Source of the DNA: an uncultured Clostridia bacterium | GTDB lineage: Bacteria; Acidobacteriota; Aminicenantia; UBA2199 | Assembly (NCBI GenBank): GCA_964633415.1 | Contig: CAZWFY010000003.1 | Location: forward strand, 12,460-76,459 | Reading direction: 5' to 3' | Length of the DNA: 64,000 nt | Shown: one piece after another, positions 19,400 through 27,077 of the stretch | How positions within the stretch are numbered: the stretch's first letter is position 1 | How the letters are laid out: the number at the start of each line of letters is the position of its first letter | Translations under genes and position numbers: made by a program | Notes under the pieces: generated by a model | The model's database searches: none | The model's input: the letters and a program-made list of their open reading frames with translations, nothing else | What the model was told of the DNA's origin: nothing

Positions 19400-20698
19400 A
19401 TGAAAAAAGTTTATGTAGGAATGAGTGCGGATATAATCCACACGGGTCATCTAAATATAATTAACGAAGCAAAAAAATATGGAGAAGTTATAGTAGGAGT
19501 TTTAACTGACAAAGCGATTGCATCGTATAAAAGACTCCCGTATTTATCACTGGAAGAGAGAAAGACCATAATAGAAAATATAAAAGGTGTATCAAAAGTC
19601 GTTTTACAGGAAACCCTTGATTATGTTCCCAATTTAAAAAAAATAAAACCCGATTTTGTGGTTCACGGCGATGACTGGAGAACGGGTCCTCAAAGAGAGA
19701 CTAGAGAAAGAGTCCTTGAAACTTTAAAGGAGTGGGGAGGGAAGTTGATCGAACCGGAATATACTCCCGGAATATCTTCTACAATGCTGAATGCAAAGGT
19801 AAGAGAGGTCGGAACCACTCCGGGAATAAGGATAAGAGCCTTAAGACGATTACTTGCAGCAAAAGGAATTGTGAGAATTATGGAAGCTCATAACGGATTA
19901 ACCGGGCTTATAGTGGAAAAGACAAAAATAAAGAAGAATGGAAGTGAAAAAGAGTTCGACGGAATATGGCTAAGCAGTCTGACCGATTCCGTTTCAAAAG
20001 GCAAACCGGATATAGGTTTTGTGGATCTTACCTCCAGAATGAATACTTTGAATAATATTCTGGAAGTGACAACAAAACCGATTATATTTGACGGAGATTC
20101 GGGGGGTCTTTCCGAACATTTCAGCTTTATGGTGAAAACACTGGAGAGAGAGGGCATCTCTGCAGTAATAATCGAGGATAAGGTGGGATCAAAGAGAAAT
20201 TCGCTTTTCGGAACGGAGGTAAAGCAAACTCAGGATTCCATAGAAAATTTTTGTGAAAAAATACGTGCCGGAAAAGAATCGCTTGTAACAAATGATTTTA
20301 TGATAATTGCAAGAATTGAGAGTCTTATTTTAAAGGCGGGAATGGAGGATGCAATAAAGAGAGCCGAAGCTTATATCGAAGCCGGTGCCGATGCAATAAT
20401 GATACATAGTAAAGAGAAGAGAGCCGACGAGATTCTGGAATTCTGTAGAAGATATAAGAAAATAAAGAACAATGTCCCGCTTGTTGTCGTTCCGAGTACA
20501 TATTCACATATAACCGAGGAAGAACTTGGAAAAGAAGGAGTAAGAATTGTAATTTACGCCAATCAGTTGCTGAGAAGCAGTTATCCTGTTATGAAAAAGG
20601 TCGCTGAATCAATTCTTGAGCATGGAAGAGCGAAGGAATGCGATGAGATGTGTATATCGATAAAAGATATCTTAACACTTATTCCAGGGAGCAAATAG
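19400..20698 (+). CDS. pepM: Phosphoenolpyruvate mutase with N-terminal cytidylyltransferase domain
   Basis: N-terminal HxGH (HTGH) nucleotidyltransferase; PepM signature EDKxxxxxNS ([10 protein letters not shown]), EAHNGL, DGDSG, ARIESL. Confidence 0.97.
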
Positions 20699-20700
20699 TA

Positions 20701-21798
20701 ATGGATCCAAAAAATTTTGTTGATGAAATAATAAAAAAAGGTTTCAACCCTTTTATGGGAGTTCCCTGTTCCGTTTTCACTTCGCTTTTAAACTATATTA
20801 ACGACAGTGCAAATACGGAAAATTATATATGTACATCGGAAGGAGAAGCGATGGGACTTGCGGGAGGATTCGCTTTGTCGGGAAAATATCCTGTTGTCTA
20901 TATGCAAAACGACGGTTACGGAAATGCTGTGAATCCTTTATCGTCACTTCAACTGCTTTATGATCTTCCTGCTCTTTTGTTGATTTCGTGGAGAGGATTC
21001 CCCGGAAAGAAAGATGCGCCTCAACATATGCTGATGGGAAAAACGATCGTTGAATTCCTTGAAATTTTTAAAATCCCTTATAAAATCCTTTCTGAAACAG
21101 ACGAAGATCTGAGAGAAATCTTAAACGAAGCTTCGGAATATTGTAAGAAGGAGAGCAAACCATTTGCGTTGATAGTGAAAAAGGGATATTTCTCTGAATA
21201 TTTAAGTGAAAGAACAGATAAAAAGAATCTGTTACCCATAAGGATTGAATACCTTAATGCATTAAAATCGGAATTGAAGAAAGATGATATTCTGTTAGGT
21301 ACAACCGGATTTACCGGACGTGAACTATATCAATCTATAGAGCATCCCGGTAAATTTTATATGACCGGATCAATGGGTTGTCTTGCATCTTTAGGACTTG
21401 GGATTGCAACCGAGAACCGGGGGAAAAGGATATTCCTTCTTGATGGTGACGGAGCTGTACTTATGAAGATGGGAAGCCTTGCTACAATCGGACACTATTC
21501 TCCTAAAAATTTCATTCATATATGCTTTGATAATTCTGCATACGAATCTACCGGAAGTCAGCCCACGGTTTCTTCGGGAACCGACCTGTGTAAAGTTGCG
21601 GAAGCAAGCGGATACAAATATACGTTAACTGTAACCGGTATCGAACAATTCAAAGAGATAGTAAAAAGTATCGACAAGTTGGAAAAACCGATGTTTTTAA
21701 GAGTTATGATACGTCCCGGAACTATAAACGGTTTGCAAAGACCATCCGATACACCTTTGCAAATGAAAGAAAAATTCAGAGATTTTATAAGAAGGTGA
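20701..21798 (+). CDS. ppd: Phosphonopyruvate decarboxylase
   Basis: GVPCS, EGEAMGLAGG, QNDGYGNAVNPL, HPGKFYMTGSMG, ThDP motif DGDGAVLM...DN. ATG 20701 follows the pepM stop (ORF track starts at 20650). Confidence 0.95.
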   Translation: MDPKNFVDEIIKKGFNPFMGVPCSVFTSLLNYINDSANTENYICTSEGEAMGLAGGFALSGKYPVVYMQNDGYGNAVNPLSSLQLLYDLPALLLISWRGFPGKKDAPQHMLMGKTIVEFLEIFKIPYKILSETDEDLREILNEASEYCKKESKPFALIVKKGYFSEYLSERTDKKNLLPIRIEYLNALKSELKKDDILLGTTGFTGRELYQSIEHPGKFYMTGSMGCLASLGLGIATENRGKRIFLLDGDGAVLMKMGSLATIGHYSPKNFIHICFDNSAYESTGSQPTVSSGTDLCKVAEASGYKYTLTVTGIEQFKEIVKSIDKLEKPMFLRVMIRPGTINGLQRPSDTPLQMKEKFRDFIRR

Positions 21799-22910
21799 GG
21801 TTGGAATATTTCAATCCGGTAAAAATACTTTTTGAAAATTTAAACTCAAAAAAAATGTCTGATATTTCCGGAAAAGGGAAGAGAAGGCTGATATTCTGTT
21901 ACGGAGGTTTTAAGGAGACTCCGGAATTATCGGCTTTTACAAAAGACAGCAAAAATGATTATATATATGGCGAAATTGAGAAGAACCCCTCTTTGGATAG
22001 TATTGACAGAGCTCTTAAGTTTGCAAGAGAGATCAAACCGGAAGTGATAATTGCAATCGGAGGCGGGTCGGTTATCGATACAGCTAAAGTCGTAAGATTC
22101 GGATGTCATTCCGATATATTTGATTCTTCCGAACTCATAGCTTTATCGAAGAACAGTGATTTGTCCACCGTTAAAAAACCGGTTTTTATAGCAATACCTA
22201 CTACACACGGGACAGGGTCGGAACTGACAATGTGGGCGACTGTTTGGGATAAAAAGAACAAAAAAAAACACTCGATTTCAAATAAAGATAATTATCCTGA
22301 TTTTGCCGTATATGATTTCGGACTTTTTTACTCTATCCCGTTAGAGGTTTCTATCTCATCTACTCTTGATGCATTATCACACTCATTTGAAGCGATATGG
22401 AATATCAACTCCAATCCTGTATCGGATCGTTTTGCATATGAAAGCATAAGATTGATTGCTGAAAATATCGGAAAGCTTAGCAGGATTACTCCGAAGGCGG
22501 TAAGGAAAGAATTGGTGTTATCCTCAATGTATGCGGGGTTGGCTTTCTCAAATACTAAAACAGCCGCTGCTCATTCGATAAGCTATCCGTTAACTCTGGA
22601 ATATGGAATTCCTCATGGAATAGCCTGCTCCATGCCACTTTTCCCTCTGCTTAAAATTAACGGGAGTAAAATCAAAGATAAGCTTTATGAACTTTTTAAA
22701 TGCACAAATTTAAACACTCCTGAAGAGTTGGAGGAGAGAATAAAGAGATCTATTGCAAACAGAGTGAATTTTTCGTTGAGAGATTACGGAGTGAAAGAGA
22801 AAGATCTGATTAACCTTGCTGAAAAATCTTTTACGAAAGAGAGAATGGCAAACAATATCGTTGAATTGACAAATAAAGATGTGTTTGAAATATTAAAGAG
22901 TATCTATTGA
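21795..22910 (+). CDS. Iron-containing alcohol dehydrogenase, probable phosphonoacetaldehyde reductase (gives 2-hydroxyethylphosphonate)
   Basis: GGGSVID, IPTTHGTGSE, DALSH, AHSISYPL, HG metal ligands; GTG start coupled to the ppd stop. Substrate inferred from context. Confidence 0.88.
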   Translation: MRLEYFNPVKILFENLNSKKMSDISGKGKRRLIFCYGGFKETPELSAFTKDSKNDYIYGEIEKNPSLDSIDRALKFAREIKPEVIIAIGGGSVIDTAKVVRFGCHSDIFDSSELIALSKNSDLSTVKKPVFIAIPTTHGTGSELTMWATVWDKKNKKKHSISNKDNYPDFAVYDFGLFYSIPLEVSISSTLDALSHSFEAIWNINSNPVSDRFAYESIRLIAENIGKLSRITPKAVRKELVLSSMYAGLAFSNTKTAAAHSISYPLTLEYGIPHGIACSMPLFPLLKINGSKIKDKLYELFKCTNLNTPEELEERIKRSIANRVNFSLRDYGVKEKDLINLAEKSFTKERMANNIVELTNKDVFEILKSIY

Positions 22911-22919
22911 GGGTTTTAA

Positions 22920-23609
22920 ATGAACAGTAGCAAAAAAAAACGGCTAAAAAATAGTGAATACGATTATAAAAAGTCTTTAAAAAGCGACGGATCCGACGGA
23001 AAAATTTCCAAATATTTGAATGTTGAAAAATATATTAATCGTCCTCTTGCTTCTCTTGTCGTGAAAATGGTTTTCAATACTAAAATAACTCCGAATCAGA
23101 TAACGCTTTTTTCCTTTTTTATAGGATTACTTGGAGCAGTCTGTTTTTCAGTCGGTAGCTATTCCTATGTTATTACAGGTGGGATTTTGATTCAGATTGC
23201 ATCGGTTTTTGATTGTTCCGACGGGATGCTCGCCCGTTCAAGAGGAGGAGGAACAATATTCGGAAAGTATCTGGATCTTTTCCTGGATAGAGTATCGGAT
23301 TTTATCATATTCTTCGGTGTTATTGCAGGTGTTTTCAGGGTTACTGGAAATTTCGAATTTTTGATTCTCGGGCTTTTTACTATTGGACTTTATATGCTTC
23401 AAGTTAACCTATTCTATATAAATAACCTTCTTGAGAAAAAGGGAACCGGAGAAACAGGGGAATTCAGAGCATTGGGTTTTTTTATATTAATGCTCCTTTC
23501 CATATTTAATAGAGTTGATATTTTTATTTATCTCTTGTCCGTTGAAGTAGTCTTAAATCTTATATTCAGGATATTGTATTTTCTTAAAACCGGAAGAGAA
23601 CTTGACTGA
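22920..23609 (+). CDS. CDP-alcohol phosphotransferase family protein
   Basis: Full motif DGxxAR-x8-G-x3-D-x3-D (DGMLARSRGGGTIFGKYLDLFLD); TPNQIT helix; multiple TMs. Confidence 0.92.
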   Translation: MNSSKKKRLKNSEYDYKKSLKSDGSDGKISKYLNVEKYINRPLASLVVKMVFNTKITPNQITLFSFFIGLLGAVCFSVGSYSYVITGGILIQIASVFDCSDGMLARSRGGGTIFGKYLDLFLDRVSDFIIFFGVIAGVFRVTGNFEFLILGLFTIGLYMLQVNLFYINNLLEKKGTGETGEFRALGFFILMLLSIFNRVDIFIYLLSVEVVLNLIFRILYFLKTGRELD

Positions 23610-23622
23610 ATCCGTTCATCTT

Positions 23623-25485
23623 TTAGTTGTTTAAATCAATCCCCAATTTTTTTAGTGTTCCTTTATCCGGGATTCCATTTCCATTGTAACCTCTTAATCT
23701 ATAATATTTTTTCAGCATTTTTGTTAGAGGGAATTTTTTTGTTTTTCCTTTTTTCTTATTCATTAATAACAACTTATCCGGCAGAGTGTCGTGGGAGGAA
23801 TTAACTCCTTCCCTGCAGTTCATATATCTTTCAAGAATGTGAATTCTTTTTCCCGCTCTTAAAAATTCTCTGTTTGATAATTTAATTCCCGTTACCGATG
23901 TGAACAAACCGGAATAGATTGAAAAATCAAGAAACGGTTTGGATAATCCCGGTAACAGCGTCATAACGATTTTCAGCAATAGTTTAGGTAAATATCTCAA
24001 TCTTAATGATTCGAGTATATAGGGATAGAATGTAAATAAGCAGGTGTGAATGGAATTGATTGATGAGATAATATTTTCAAAGAGAAAAACATATTTGGCT
24101 TTATTAAGTGTTGAGTTTTTTGGAATAAAACCGAGAGTTGTCTCAAGGGAAAAAATTGCAGATGAGAGATGACAGCCCCCTCTGTTTGCGACTGCATAAT
24201 TTAATCCCATACCCAAACTTCCCCTCGGATCATATCCGGCGACCTCAAGCCCTTTAACCTGAATTGCAAACTCTTTTCCGCCGTATTTTTCCGAGAGTTT
24301 TTTGCTCCCCATGGCGAGTTCCGCTCCGAAATTTCTTCTATATGCAATATCATAAAGTGTTTCGGAAATATTTTCAGAATTGCCGAATTTTAACGGGGAG
24401 TCGATAATTCCTTGTCCGGATGCTTCCATTGCATAAGCTATAGTACCTCCGGTTGATATCGTATCCAATCCCATTTCGGAACATATGTCATTCCATATCG
24501 CAATTGATTCCATATCAAATATCCCTATGTTGGATCCGAGAAGGACAGCAGATTCATATTCCGGTATTTTCATCTCTTTTCCGTTAAAATCCCCTTTGTG
24601 TCCACATAAGATTGAACAGTTTTTGCAGCTTTGATGTTTTGTTTTGAATTTTTTACTTATATATTCCCCTGATAGTTGTTCAGCTTTTTCACTGGTTCCT
24701 GAGGAAAAGTTATTAACCGGTAGTATTCCGGCTCTATTGTTTGATTTCACATACATTAACGTTCCGAATTTATTATATGCAGTTCCCGTATAATAGTTTC
24801 TCTTTATATATTGGAAACCCCTTTTTACAATTTTTTTAAAGGTTTTTTTATCGACAGGGTTAATGGAAAATTCATCTCCTTCAGCGACAATACCTTTGAT
24901 TTTTTTTGATCCGAGAACTGCACCGAGTCCTCCTCTTCCGAGAAATCTGTCATCTGAAGCAATATTTGCAAAATTGACGAGATTTTCTCCTGCAGGTCCT
25001 ATGACCATAGAGCCTTTCCCGTATTTTTGTAATAAACCGGAAGTATCACTTGTTGTCTTTCCCCATAGCTTTTTTGCATTTCGGAATTCTACGCCTGAAG
25101 AATCAATTCTTAAAAAGATAGGTTCTTCAGATCTTCCGGTAATTATCAGTCCATCCCATCCGGATGTTTTAAGTGCGTTTCCGAAAGAACCTCCGCAGGA
25201 AGAGTGGGTGATTATTCCTGTCAGGGGAGATTTGGAAACGGCTGAAAATCTTGCTGAATTCGGAGCTCCGGTTCCTATCAGGATTCCGGTTGCAATGATA
25301 AAAATGTTTTCACTACTTAACGGGTCAATTCCGGGTTTTAATCGTTCATAGAGTAATTTTAGTGCAAGACCTTTGCCGCCTAAAAATTTTTTCCTCTCAT
25401 CTTTTGAGATCAAGATTTCTTTATATATCTTTTTAGTTAAGTTTATTTCAATAAATCTGTTTGAAGTTCCTATTATCTCTTTCAC
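23623..25485 (-). CDS. aor: Tungsten-type aldehyde:ferredoxin oxidoreductase family protein
   Basis: FLGGKGLA, SKSPLTG, GRGGLGAVLGSK, CxxCxxxC (CKNCSILC), GLDTISTG, YDPRG, NRGGCH, YYRLRG. Confidence 0.92.
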   Translation of the reverse strand: MKEIIGTSNRFIEINLTKKIYKEILISKDERKKFLGGKGLALKLLYERLKPGIDPLSSENIFIIATGILIGTGAPNSARFSAVSKSPLTGIITHSSCGGSFGNALKTSGWDGLIITGRSEEPIFLRIDSSGVEFRNAKKLWGKTTSDTSGLLQKYGKGSMVIGPAGENLVNFANIASDDRFLGRGGLGAVLGSKKIKGIVAEGDEFSINPVDKKTFKKIVKRGFQYIKRNYYTGTAYNKFGTLMYVKSNNRAGILPVNNFSSGTSEKAEQLSGEYISKKFKTKHQSCKNCSILCGHKGDFNGKEMKIPEYESAVLLGSNIGIFDMESIAIWNDICSEMGLDTISTGGTIAYAMEASGQGIIDSPLKFGNSENISETLYDIAYRRNFGAELAMGSKKLSEKYGGKEFAIQVKGLEVAGYDPRGSLGMGLNYAVANRGGCHLSSAIFSLETTLGFIPKNSTLNKAKYVFLFENIISSINSIHTCLFTFYPYILESLRLRYLPKLLLKIVMTLLPGLSKPFLDFSIYSGLFTSVTGIKLSNREFLRAGKRIHILERYMNCREGVNSSHDTLPDKLLLMNKKKGKTKKFPLTKMLKKYYRLRGYNGNGIPDKGTLKKLGIDLNN

Positions 25486-27077
25486 TGTTTTTCAGTTTTT
25501 TTTGGAATATAACTCATAACTCTTTCTGCCATTGCAGTAATTGTAAGGCTTGGATTGACTCCGAGATTTGCGGGGATTGATGATCCGTCGATCACATACA
25601 TATTTTCATAACCGAAAACCTTATGATATTTATCAATAACACCTTCGCCGGCATCTTTTCCCATGGGGCATCCTCCGATAAGGTGTGCGGAGACCGGAGA
25701 ATTGAACAATATTTCGGTTACGGCACTCTGAGGAATTCCGTCAATTTTTTTTGCCATTTCTCTTGCTGCATCATTTGCGACCTGAATGTAAGCCGGGATC
25801 TTTTTTTCTCCCGTTATTGATGTTAAAACTTTTTTAAAAGGAAACAGCAGTCTTCTTTTTTTTGTGAGCCTTATTTTATTATCCGTAGTCTGCATCACGA
25901 GAAGAATTGTGGAAAGTTCCGCCCATCTATATGGGATTGATATTTTTAAAAACCTTAAAGGATGGATGATTATATCTTTTATCAGTTTAAAAAATCGTGG
26001 AACTTTTCCGGTCTTATCTACAAGAAGAGTTGTAAGAAAGTTCATTGCACTTGAGCCCTTAGGATATCGGACAACTTCTATATGAGTGGAGTCATTGACA
26101 TAAACCCCGGAAGTTATCGAAACGCCTTCGACTTTAAATCCTTTTCTTCTGTTTGCTGTGATTCCCGTCATAACTTCACTATTGGTTCTCGCACTGAAGC
26201 CGACTTTTTCAGATAATTTTTTCAAATATTCTTTTTCTTTACATTTAAGAAGAAGTTCATTGGTTCCCAAAGCACCTGCTGAAAATATGATACCTTTGGA
26301 GATAAATTTTTTCTTTTTATGCAAAGTTGCGATCCCGGTAACTTTTTTTGCCGAAATGCTGTAAGTTCCGTCACTATTCTGTGTGACCGATAATACTTTG
26401 TGCTGAGGAAGTATTTCCAGACCACGGTTCTCAGCGAGCCAGAGATAGTTTTTATCAAGACTGTTTTTCCCGTCGTCTCTGCATCCGACCATACAGTGCC
26501 CTGTTTTTGTGCAGCCTGTTCTTTCCGGTCCCTCTCCGTTGAAAAACGGATCCGGAACCTTTTTGCCGGGTTCACCGAAGAAGACTCCGACATCAGTGTT
26601 TTTAAAAAACTTTTCTCTTCCTATCTCTTTAGAATATTCGTATAACAGTTTATCTGCATCTGTCATTCCACTGTTTTTTGTTACTCCGAGCATCCTTTTT
26701 GCAGTATTATAGTGTGGGATAAGCTCCTTTTTCCAATCTTTATCAAGAGAGATCCACGATGGATCCGTGAAAAAGGGGTCGGGCGGGACGAGTAACGTAT
26801 TTGCATATACGAGGCTCCCGCCGCCGACTCCGCTCCCTGCTAGTATAAGGACATTTTTTAACGGTTGGATCCTTAATATCCCGTATAATCCGATTGCAGG
26901 AGCCCAGAGGAATTTACGAAGATTCCAGTTGGTTTTCGGGAAATTTTTTGGACGATATCTTTTTCCGCTCTCTATCATTAAGACCGAATAGCCTTTCTCA
27001 ACAAGTCTTAAAGCCGAAACACTTCCACCGAAACCCGAACCGATAATGATGTAGTCATAACTATTTGAATTTTCCAT
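25482..27077 (-). CDS. GMC-family FAD oxidoreductase (cholesterol oxidase ChoD-like)
   Basis: IIIGSGFGGSV FAD loop, GSGVGGGSLVYAN, HLIGGCPMG, GVNPSLTITAMAER. Confidence 0.9.
   Translation of the reverse strand: MENSNSYDYIIIGSGFGGSVSALRLVEKGYSVLMIESGKRYRPKNFPKTNWNLRKFLWAPAIGLYGILRIQPLKNVLILAGSGVGGGSLVYANTLLVPPDPFFTDPSWISLDKDWKKELIPHYNTAKRMLGVTKNSGMTDADKLLYEYSKEIGREKFFKNTDVGVFFGEPGKKVPDPFFNGEGPERTGCTKTGHCMVGCRDDGKNSLDKNYLWLAENRGLEILPQHKVLSVTQNSDGTYSISAKKVTGIATLHKKKKFISKGIIFSAGALGTNELLLKCKEKEYLKKLSEKVGFSARTNSEVMTGITANRRKGFKVEGVSITSGVYVNDSTHIEVVRYPKGSSAMNFLTTLLVDKTGKVPRFFKLIKDIIIHPLRFLKISIPYRWAELSTILLVMQTTDNKIRLTKKRRLLFPFKKVLTSITGEKKIPAYIQVANDAAREMAKKIDGIPQSAVTEILFNSPVSAHLIGGCPMGKDAGEGVIDKYHKVFGYENMYVIDGSSIPANLGVNPSLTITAMAERVMSYIPKKTEKQ

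Follow-up and report, generated by a model that had tools for sequence, protein, structure and literature searches.

An apparent 2-hydroxyethylphosphonate variant of the Group 1 phosphonolipid cluster, in a CDP-alcohol phosphotransferase family with apparently exchangeable head groups

The CDP-alcohol phosphotransferase encoded at positions 22920–23609 of the window (the whole stretch of 64,000 nucleotides analysed here) probably transfers 2-hydroxyethylphosphonate (HEP) from CMP-HEP to a membrane lipid, which would make the operon an HEP form of the Group 1 phosphonolipid design, itself uncharacterised. The case for a lipid product is built on gene content, family boundaries, genomic linkage and residue patterns. 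The transferase is the last gene of a four-gene operon with intergenic gaps of 2, −4 and 9 bp. The genes, and the segments of the transferase discussed below, are as follows:

19400..20698, + strand: cytidylyltransferase (PF01467, Fom1-type) fused to PEP mutase (PepM), TIGR02320
20701..21798, + strand: phosphonopyruvate decarboxylase (Ppd), TIGR03297 at 381 bits, above cut-off
21795..22910, + strand: iron-containing alcohol dehydrogenase, PhpC-like, TIGR03405, with metal and NAD motifs
22920..23609, + strand: CDP-alcohol phosphotransferase of 229 amino acids, PF01066 at 54 bits (the gene under study)
23025..23114, + strand: JM1 to the start of TM1, with E36, NRP and TPNQIT; CMP-binding motif and donor-substituent side
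23211..23291, + strand: catalytic signature D98 to D123, with R124, C99 and L122
23388..23570, + strand: acceptor half, TM4 to TM6, with the family motif LYxLQxxL(F/Y)Y...GExGExR and R217

The operon and its predicted donor

The fusion of cytidylyltransferase and PepM (CT-PepM) scores 410 bits against TIGR02320, above its cut-off, and contains the EDK-x5-NS motif. For the alcohol dehydrogenase, the top NCBIfam model is the phosphonate-associated TIGR03405, at 273 bits and below its cut-off of 424; the enzyme is predicted to reduce phosphonoacetaldehyde to HEP, a step performed by a PhpC-type reductase in the pathway of PMC8942020. The cytidylyltransferase N-domain matches PDB 5x3d with an E-value of 2.8e-58, far better than it matches ethanolamine- or glycerol-phosphate cytidylyltransferases. 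PDB 5x3d is the Fom1 domain that makes CMP-HEP, and because of this close match the donor of the transferase is very probably CMP-HEP, supplied by the operon's own cytidylyltransferase. Activity of the Fom1 cytidylyltransferase on HEP has been described (PMC6697681). The operon thereby resembles the early steps of the fosfomycin pathway (Fom1/Fom2/FomC), where a CT-PepM fusion, Ppd and an iron-containing alcohol dehydrogenase lead to CMP-HEP, but it has no radical-SAM methyltransferase or epoxidase, and a membrane transferase would here consume CMP-HEP.

The transferase carries the complete signature D-x2-DG-x2-AR-x7-G-x3-D-x3-D at residues 98–123, which together with P(D/N)xx(T/S) and a six-TM core places it in PF01066 class I. 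Its AlphaFold model (pLDDT 89.8) has a juxtamembrane (JM) helix and six long transmembrane (TM) helices. At 229 amino acids and six TM helices, with no extra C-terminal helices and no signature His, it is unlike the eukaryotic-type CPT/EPT enzymes. Separate PgsA-like and PssA-like genes are found elsewhere in the genome, so the operon transferase is additional to core phospholipid synthesis. A promoter and terminator scan gave no signal beyond chance level. Hydrothermal-vent samples contain this DNA, among them one that is not flagged as a possible source; none of the samples listed as containing it is an RNA sample.

Similarity to DIPP synthase and placement of the family

The preliminary description had compared a segment preceding the catalytic motif (residues 38–65, first letter at window position 23031) to di-myo-inositol-phosphate (DIPP) synthases, and had seen in it, and in the pairing with a cytidylyltransferase, the logic of a soluble acceptor and possibly of a C–P compatible solute. 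The resemblance is real, with AF2299 and the A. fulgidus IPCT/DIPPS both showing INRK(V/I)S...PNQ(I/M)T. Among proteins of solved structure, AF2299 is the best sequence match at 75 bits, followed by A. fulgidus IPCT/DIPPS at 44 and M. tuberculosis PIPS at 42. Foldseek ranks AF2299 first, and fold matches are found to 4MND (Z 20.1), PIPS (18.8 and 17.2), human and Xenopus CPT (12–13) and PgsA (12.2). Among the NCBIfam models, archaetidylinositol-phosphate synthase (AIPS, lipid-making) comes first with 79.5 bits, IPCT/DIPPS second with 59.6 and PIPS third with 57.2, all far below the respective cut-offs of 180, 580 (a fused-protein model) and 170 bits. In line with the preliminary description, the enzyme is not PgsA-, PssA- or CPT-like, and it sits in a branch with DIPPS and AF2299, to which PIPS and AIPS also belong. 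However, the segment does not single out DIPP synthase: 83 of 140 more distant homologues have a pre-motif of the NR(P/K) type, and of these 83 only 36 also have the DIPPS-type SY and RxxR while 32 have neither (these homologues were chosen by similarity to the query, and the counts are indicative).

It has been shown that P(D/N)xx(T/S) is a family-wide CMP (cytosine) binding motif, and that JM1/TM2 forms the donor-substituent site (PMC4634129). Since the pre-motif lies on the donor side (JM1/TM1), it carries no information on the acceptor, and the hint of a soluble acceptor drawn from it has no support. The proposed pairing with a cytidylyltransferase survives in part: a soluble CDP-type donor is very probable, but the partner is a Fom1/TagD-type PF01467 protein and not a member of the IPCT family. 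Nor does a cytidylyltransferase beside a CDP-alcohol phosphotransferase point to an osmolyte, as it is also the logic of lipid pathways. In the Rhodothermus marinus BEPIS system a soluble CDP-donor, in which the head group and not the lipid is activated, feeds a lipid (PMC4587543); a CDP-activated head group is likewise used in the proposed alternative inositol-lipid route of Bacteroides vulgatus (PMC9246714), and a soluble CDP-donor feeds a lipid in CPG2 synthesis by Caulobacter CpgD/CpgA. Unlike in BEPIS, the head group here is a phosphonate. The B. vulgatus set of MIPS, NTP transferase, phosphotransferase and LPG-synthase-TM (with or without HAD) matches the inositol-linked members of the family described here.

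This family is well delimited in a profile search, full-length members scoring 190–335 bits and everything else at most 130. By record titles, the homologues are mostly from Candidatus Aminicenantes. The family is found in 17 of 41 related genomes, and PepM in 7 of these 17; the family is therefore not phosphonate-specific. In a mixture-model tree it makes up one starred group (98/95), and the DIPPS-like and PIPS sequences make up a different one, also starred (100/95); in this tree the DIPPS rows are IPCT-fused SY/RDxR proteins used as proxies, aligned against 4MND and 4O6M, and the PIPS row is the annotated Tsukamurella PIPS. Forcing the family together with the DIPPS-like set alone was rejected by the AU test (p=0.037) and was borderline with PIPS included (p=0.054); a grouping with the Burkholderia-type enzymes was neither demonstrated nor ruled out (p=0.17). 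The tree leaves the transferase outside the DIPPS-like clade, as represented by these proxies, and the transferase also lacks the acceptor motifs of that clade. The nearest outgroup proteins are ∼290 amino acids long, lie beside aminotransferase and NTP transferase genes, and give no pointer to the acceptor.

In summary of this comparison, the transferase shares with DIPPS (A. fulgidus, 4MND) and AF2299 (4O6M) the fold, JM1 and six TM helices, the INR..PNQxT segment and, probably, a soluble CDP-donor and the counterparts of three pocket arginines. Unlike them, it is neither fused to nor paired with an IPCT-type (PF12804/PF00483) transferase, does not possess SY(T/S)-x-K and RDxR, and has a flippase-like partner, and no inositol-phosphate synthase was found in the genome. 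Judged from its sequence, it works like the soluble-donor branch but fails every DIPP synthase sequence test.

Active-site residues and genomic partners

Inositol-linked members differ consistently from two separate groups of PepM-linked members at columns 36, 99 and 122 only. Column 36, in JM1, is Glu in phosphonate-linked and Asp in inositol-linked members. Column 99, in TM2, corresponds to the donor contact M69 of PIPS, and is Cys (C99) in phosphonate-linked members but Gly in inositol-linked members, DIPPS and AF2299. Column 122, in TM3 and beside the catalytic Asp, is Leu (L122) in the former and Phe in the latter. None of these columns is in TM4–TM6, where Y158, Q161, Y166, G177, E181 and R183 are shared by both kinds of member. 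This suggests a variable soluble CDP-donor and an acceptor that looks common to inositol- and phosphonate-linked members, which argues against a DIP-type symmetry (CDP-X plus X-phosphate), and also against CDP-diacylglycerol with a variable head group. The residue pattern alone fits a common lipid as well as a common soluble acceptor, for example glycerol-3-phosphate; it is the flippase linkage that discriminates between these.

The acceptor motifs are SYTSEKY...RDER in AfDIPPS (4MND), AYTGDKF...RDFR in AF2299 and SY(I/A)KAR...ERPER in PIPS. In the family, the corresponding motif is LQxxL(F/Y)Y...GExR (LFYINN and GEFR in the query), with Arg at position 180 in 0 of 150 sequences. PIPS residues S132, K135 and R137 have no counterparts, and the PIPS groove proline P153 is replaced by the conserved Glu181, which is acidic as in soluble-donor enzymes. 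In contrast, R94, R155 and R195, the most important PIPS residues for inositol-phosphate binding according to the PIPS papers, appear to be kept as R124 (100%), R/K183 (100%, with a HMMER register that is ambiguous by three residues) and R217 (all PepM-linked members). On these alignments the acceptor pocket is remodelled, yet still basic. I had considered the missing first Arg of RxxR as a lost phosphate site, but this was dropped: in PIPS it is the second Arg, R155, that binds phosphate, while R152 contributes its main chain (PIPS papers). The transferase therefore resembles PIPS and AIPS in branch, fold, these three arginines and the top NCBIfam score (AIPS), but those enzymes use a CDP-lipid donor and inositol-1-phosphate, and their SYxKAR/ERPER motifs differ. 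As to a closed, hydrophilic donor pocket between JM1 and TM2, expected for a soluble CDP donor, fold scores slightly favour 4MND and AF2299, and the invariant R41 and acidic E181 resemble both.

I compared gene neighbourhoods over 160 family loci. The partner that stays the same is an HpnL-like protein of PF03706/UPF0104. Downstream sequence is available for 140 of the loci, and 86 of these have the flippase-like gene, which is directly convergent in 66; among phosphonate-type loci it is found in 24 of 33. Across the 41 related genomes, the flippase profile has a match in all 17 with the family, versus 6 of 24 without it. All these counts include near-duplicates and kin, which are not independent. 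DIPPS-like fused genes, of which about eight loci were sampled as a control (one adjoining an inositol-phosphate synthase), have no flippase-like neighbour. The family thus travels with a lipid-flippase-like gene where the sampled DIPPS-like genes do not, contrary to the earlier suggestion of a soluble C–P solute. UPF0104 genes occur in lipid-modification and glycolipid operons such as gpgSDF, their flippase activity being only predicted (PMC12713373), as is that of HpnL. In addition, pgsA-like genes adjoin in 6 family loci.

The window itself has no flippase gene between the transferase and the aldehyde:ferredoxin oxidoreductase (AOR) gene, its place in close relatives (L005, L011, L015); a homologue is found unlinked in this genome, on contig C47, and is closer to another subclade. 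Positions 23623–27077 of the window hold a GMC oxidoreductase and the AOR; in close relatives a same-strand flippase gene comes next, which is missing here. Outside the family, an 808-amino-acid fusion of phosphotransferase and PF03706 (P0143, L168:2001-6706) lies downstream of split ppd-like and class V aminotransferase genes, with no pepM among the called genes shown at that locus. From L190:8469 onward (G026:C2), a 590-amino-acid frame scores as flippase plus NTP transferase, and is divergent from phosphotransferase and inositol-phosphate synthase genes. Similar long frames are seen near MIPS in G004 and G023.

The variable partner is the donor module, which can be CT-PepM, a stand-alone PF01467/TagD-like protein or a LicC/IPCT-like NTP transferase. 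A cytidylyltransferase is present in 57 of 76 well-flanked loci, and an inositol-phosphate synthase accompanies 10 of 150 sequences. In the same-genus relative G001 (L006 and L179) the transferase is kept and no PepM was found, while the place of the flippase gene is taken by a TagD-like cytidylyltransferase; head-group modules have thus been exchanged inside one genus. One subclade (L032, L044, L049 and similar loci) is linked to a HAD phosphatase and DUF3943, with Lys replacing Arg183 and no cytidylyltransferase nearby, and may run with a different donor or in a different direction. At L087, L100, L102 and L113, CT-PepM lies beside a GT4 gene and the transferase/flippase pair, with no ppd or alcohol dehydrogenase gene within the stretch.

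The acceptor and the relation to Group 1 clusters

The reading favoured here is that PepM, Ppd and the alcohol dehydrogenase would convert PEP to HEP, which the fused Fom1-type domain, by close homology, would activate to CMP-HEP. This would bind at the JM1/TM1–3 donor site of the transferase, and the HEP-phosphonyl group would pass to a membrane-lipid hydroxyl with release of CMP, in the Kennedy/BEPIS direction; the UPF0104 flippase-like protein, linked in most relatives, would then move the product across the membrane. The acceptor could be a lipid not open to CDP activation, with ceramide, dialkylglycerol ether and DAG as candidates, or else an anionic lipid, for instance phosphatidylglycerol, modified at its head-group hydroxyl. 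The retained R124, R183 and R217 suit an anionic acceptor, and a lipid of the latter kind would account for them. A ceramide acceptor is possible: 38 of the 41 genomes from the class have a serine-palmitoyltransferase-like (Spt-like) gene, under the cut-off and not discriminating (for L199:665-1846, that is G000 C31:8664-9845, 557 bits against a cut-off of 640), and a rough and weak scan for a bCerS motif found no ceramide synthase. A hopanoid acceptor is unlikely and was rejected for the family, as none of the 41 genomes has a squalene-hopene cyclase over the cut-off. Against a lipid acceptor stand the six TM helices of the transferase, as Clarke et al. report soluble acceptors for members with six TM helices, and three to four extra helices for those that accept lipids; so do the retained arginines, the absence of the flippase gene from its usual position in this genome, the merely predicted activity of UPF0104/HpnL flippases, the lack of any isolated Group 1 lipid, the vent habitat and the modest AU support.

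Several of these points favour a soluble phosphonate ester, made by the four genes from CMP-HEP and glycerol-3-phosphate, a polyol (or its phosphate) or a second HEP, and serving as a compatible solute. I consider this unlikely, and no less so its more specific form, a phosphatase-resistant counterpart of di-myo-inositol phosphate that would protect a vent bacterium against heat or osmotic stress. Of the solved structures, those of AF2299 and DIPPS, both soluble-donor enzymes, are nearest (Z 20.1 versus 18.8 for PIPS), the operon is self-contained with no linked flippase in this genome, its DNA is present in vent samples, and a soluble product is kept in play by the three pocket arginines and the six-helix build. 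However, the transferase is outside the DIPPS-like clade, and SY(T/S), the K/R pair that follows and the first Arg of RxxR (position 180) are lost. The acceptor half is the same in inositol- and phosphonate-linked members, where a reaction with identical donor and acceptor would need it to change. The strong flippase linkage, absent from the DIPPS-like loci sampled, also speaks against it, as does the absence of a phosphatase gene from the phosphonate-type loci. By record titles, lake, river and soil samples have yielded phosphonate-type relatives as well, and no inositol-phosphate synthase (PF01658) was found in this 94%-complete genome. No C–P compatible solute is known to have been described. 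On sequence grounds, a better candidate for a soluble C–P product than the window gene is found on Agrobacterium vitis pAvCG412 (L178:405-5609), where pepM, aminotransferase, NTP transferase, oxidoreductase and CDP-alcohol phosphotransferase genes occur with no flippase gene in the stretch; this phosphotransferase keeps SYT and RDxR, and falls in the DIPPS/PIPS clade on a long branch.

Two further acceptor–donor arrangements were weighed. Transfer of HEP to a lipid-linked glycan or glycolipid (a polyprenyl-linked repeat unit, or a sugar head group), giving a surface substituent, would fit with related enzymes that sit with TagD in an exopolysaccharide locus, with the GT4 gene that adjoins CT-PepM in four or five loci, with HEP being known on exopolysaccharide and with UPF0104 genes in glycolipid operons. 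It is nonetheless improbable: genes for a glycosyltransferase, a polymerase or LicD are absent from the operon studied and from most of the family loci, and GT4 is unlinked in this genome. The conventional direction, with CDP-diacylglycerol as donor and the HEP hydroxyl as acceptor, would give phosphatidyl-HEP, a phosphonolipid with a free phosphonate. For it speak the retained arginines, the six-TM build, the presence of CdsA in the genome and the HAD-linked subclade that has no nearby cytidylyltransferase. But it would leave a highly conserved HEP cytidylyltransferase without a role, the head-group-dependent differences are on the donor and not the acceptor side, and the groove proline of PIPS is replaced by the acidic Glu181. 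This arrangement is very improbable, and there is correspondingly little chance that HEP is held by R124, R183 and R217 as PIPS holds inositol phosphate. That some explanation other than these and a membrane-lipid acceptor applies has only a marginal chance.

With a membrane lipid as the favoured acceptor, the closest known design is the Group 1 phosphonolipid cluster (Yu et al., 2013, as cited in PMC8942020); its product is predicted, and none has been isolated (PMC8942020). Such clusters also go under the name 'Burkholderiales_CDP-OH' (PMC5987646), and in the Burkholderia cluster of this predicted type I read the gene order as phosphotransferase, oxygenase, HpnL, PntC, PepM-PntC, Ppd. As in Group 1, the window encodes PepM-cytidylyltransferase, Ppd and a CDP-alcohol phosphotransferase, with an HpnL-like protein that is unlinked here, and the Burkholderia transferase has the same JM1-TPN segment. 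In contrast to Group 1, the operon has a PhpC-like alcohol dehydrogenase (the HEP branch) and not an AEP transaminase and 2OG oxygenase, and its cytidylyltransferase is of the PF01467 Fom1 type and not PF12804 PntC. Its transferase falls in a clade of its own (30% identity over 103 amino acids), the acceptor half differs, the genomes searched gave no squalene-hopene cyclase, and the flippase gene is convergent or unlinked. The operon thus appears to be an HEP variant of a known but uncharacterised cluster type, and its family seems to exchange one head group for another.

Reconstitution of a bacterial pathway that links a phosphonate head group to a lipid does not appear to have been achieved so far, and the operon is a minimal test case for such a pathway, with four genes and an activating domain close to a characterised HEP cytidylyltransferase. 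If the product is soluble, it would represent a new osmolyte class. If the acceptor is a lipid, this would contradict the rule that six-helix members use soluble acceptors only, and an HEP phosphonolipid would be expected in vents and in anoxic sediments. The family is also a natural experiment, in which one small six-helix transferase is combined with glycerol-phosphate, inositol-phosphate, LicC-type or phosphonate donor modules; this pairing spans the Aminicenantes, and the inositol and phosphonate members differ at three residues.
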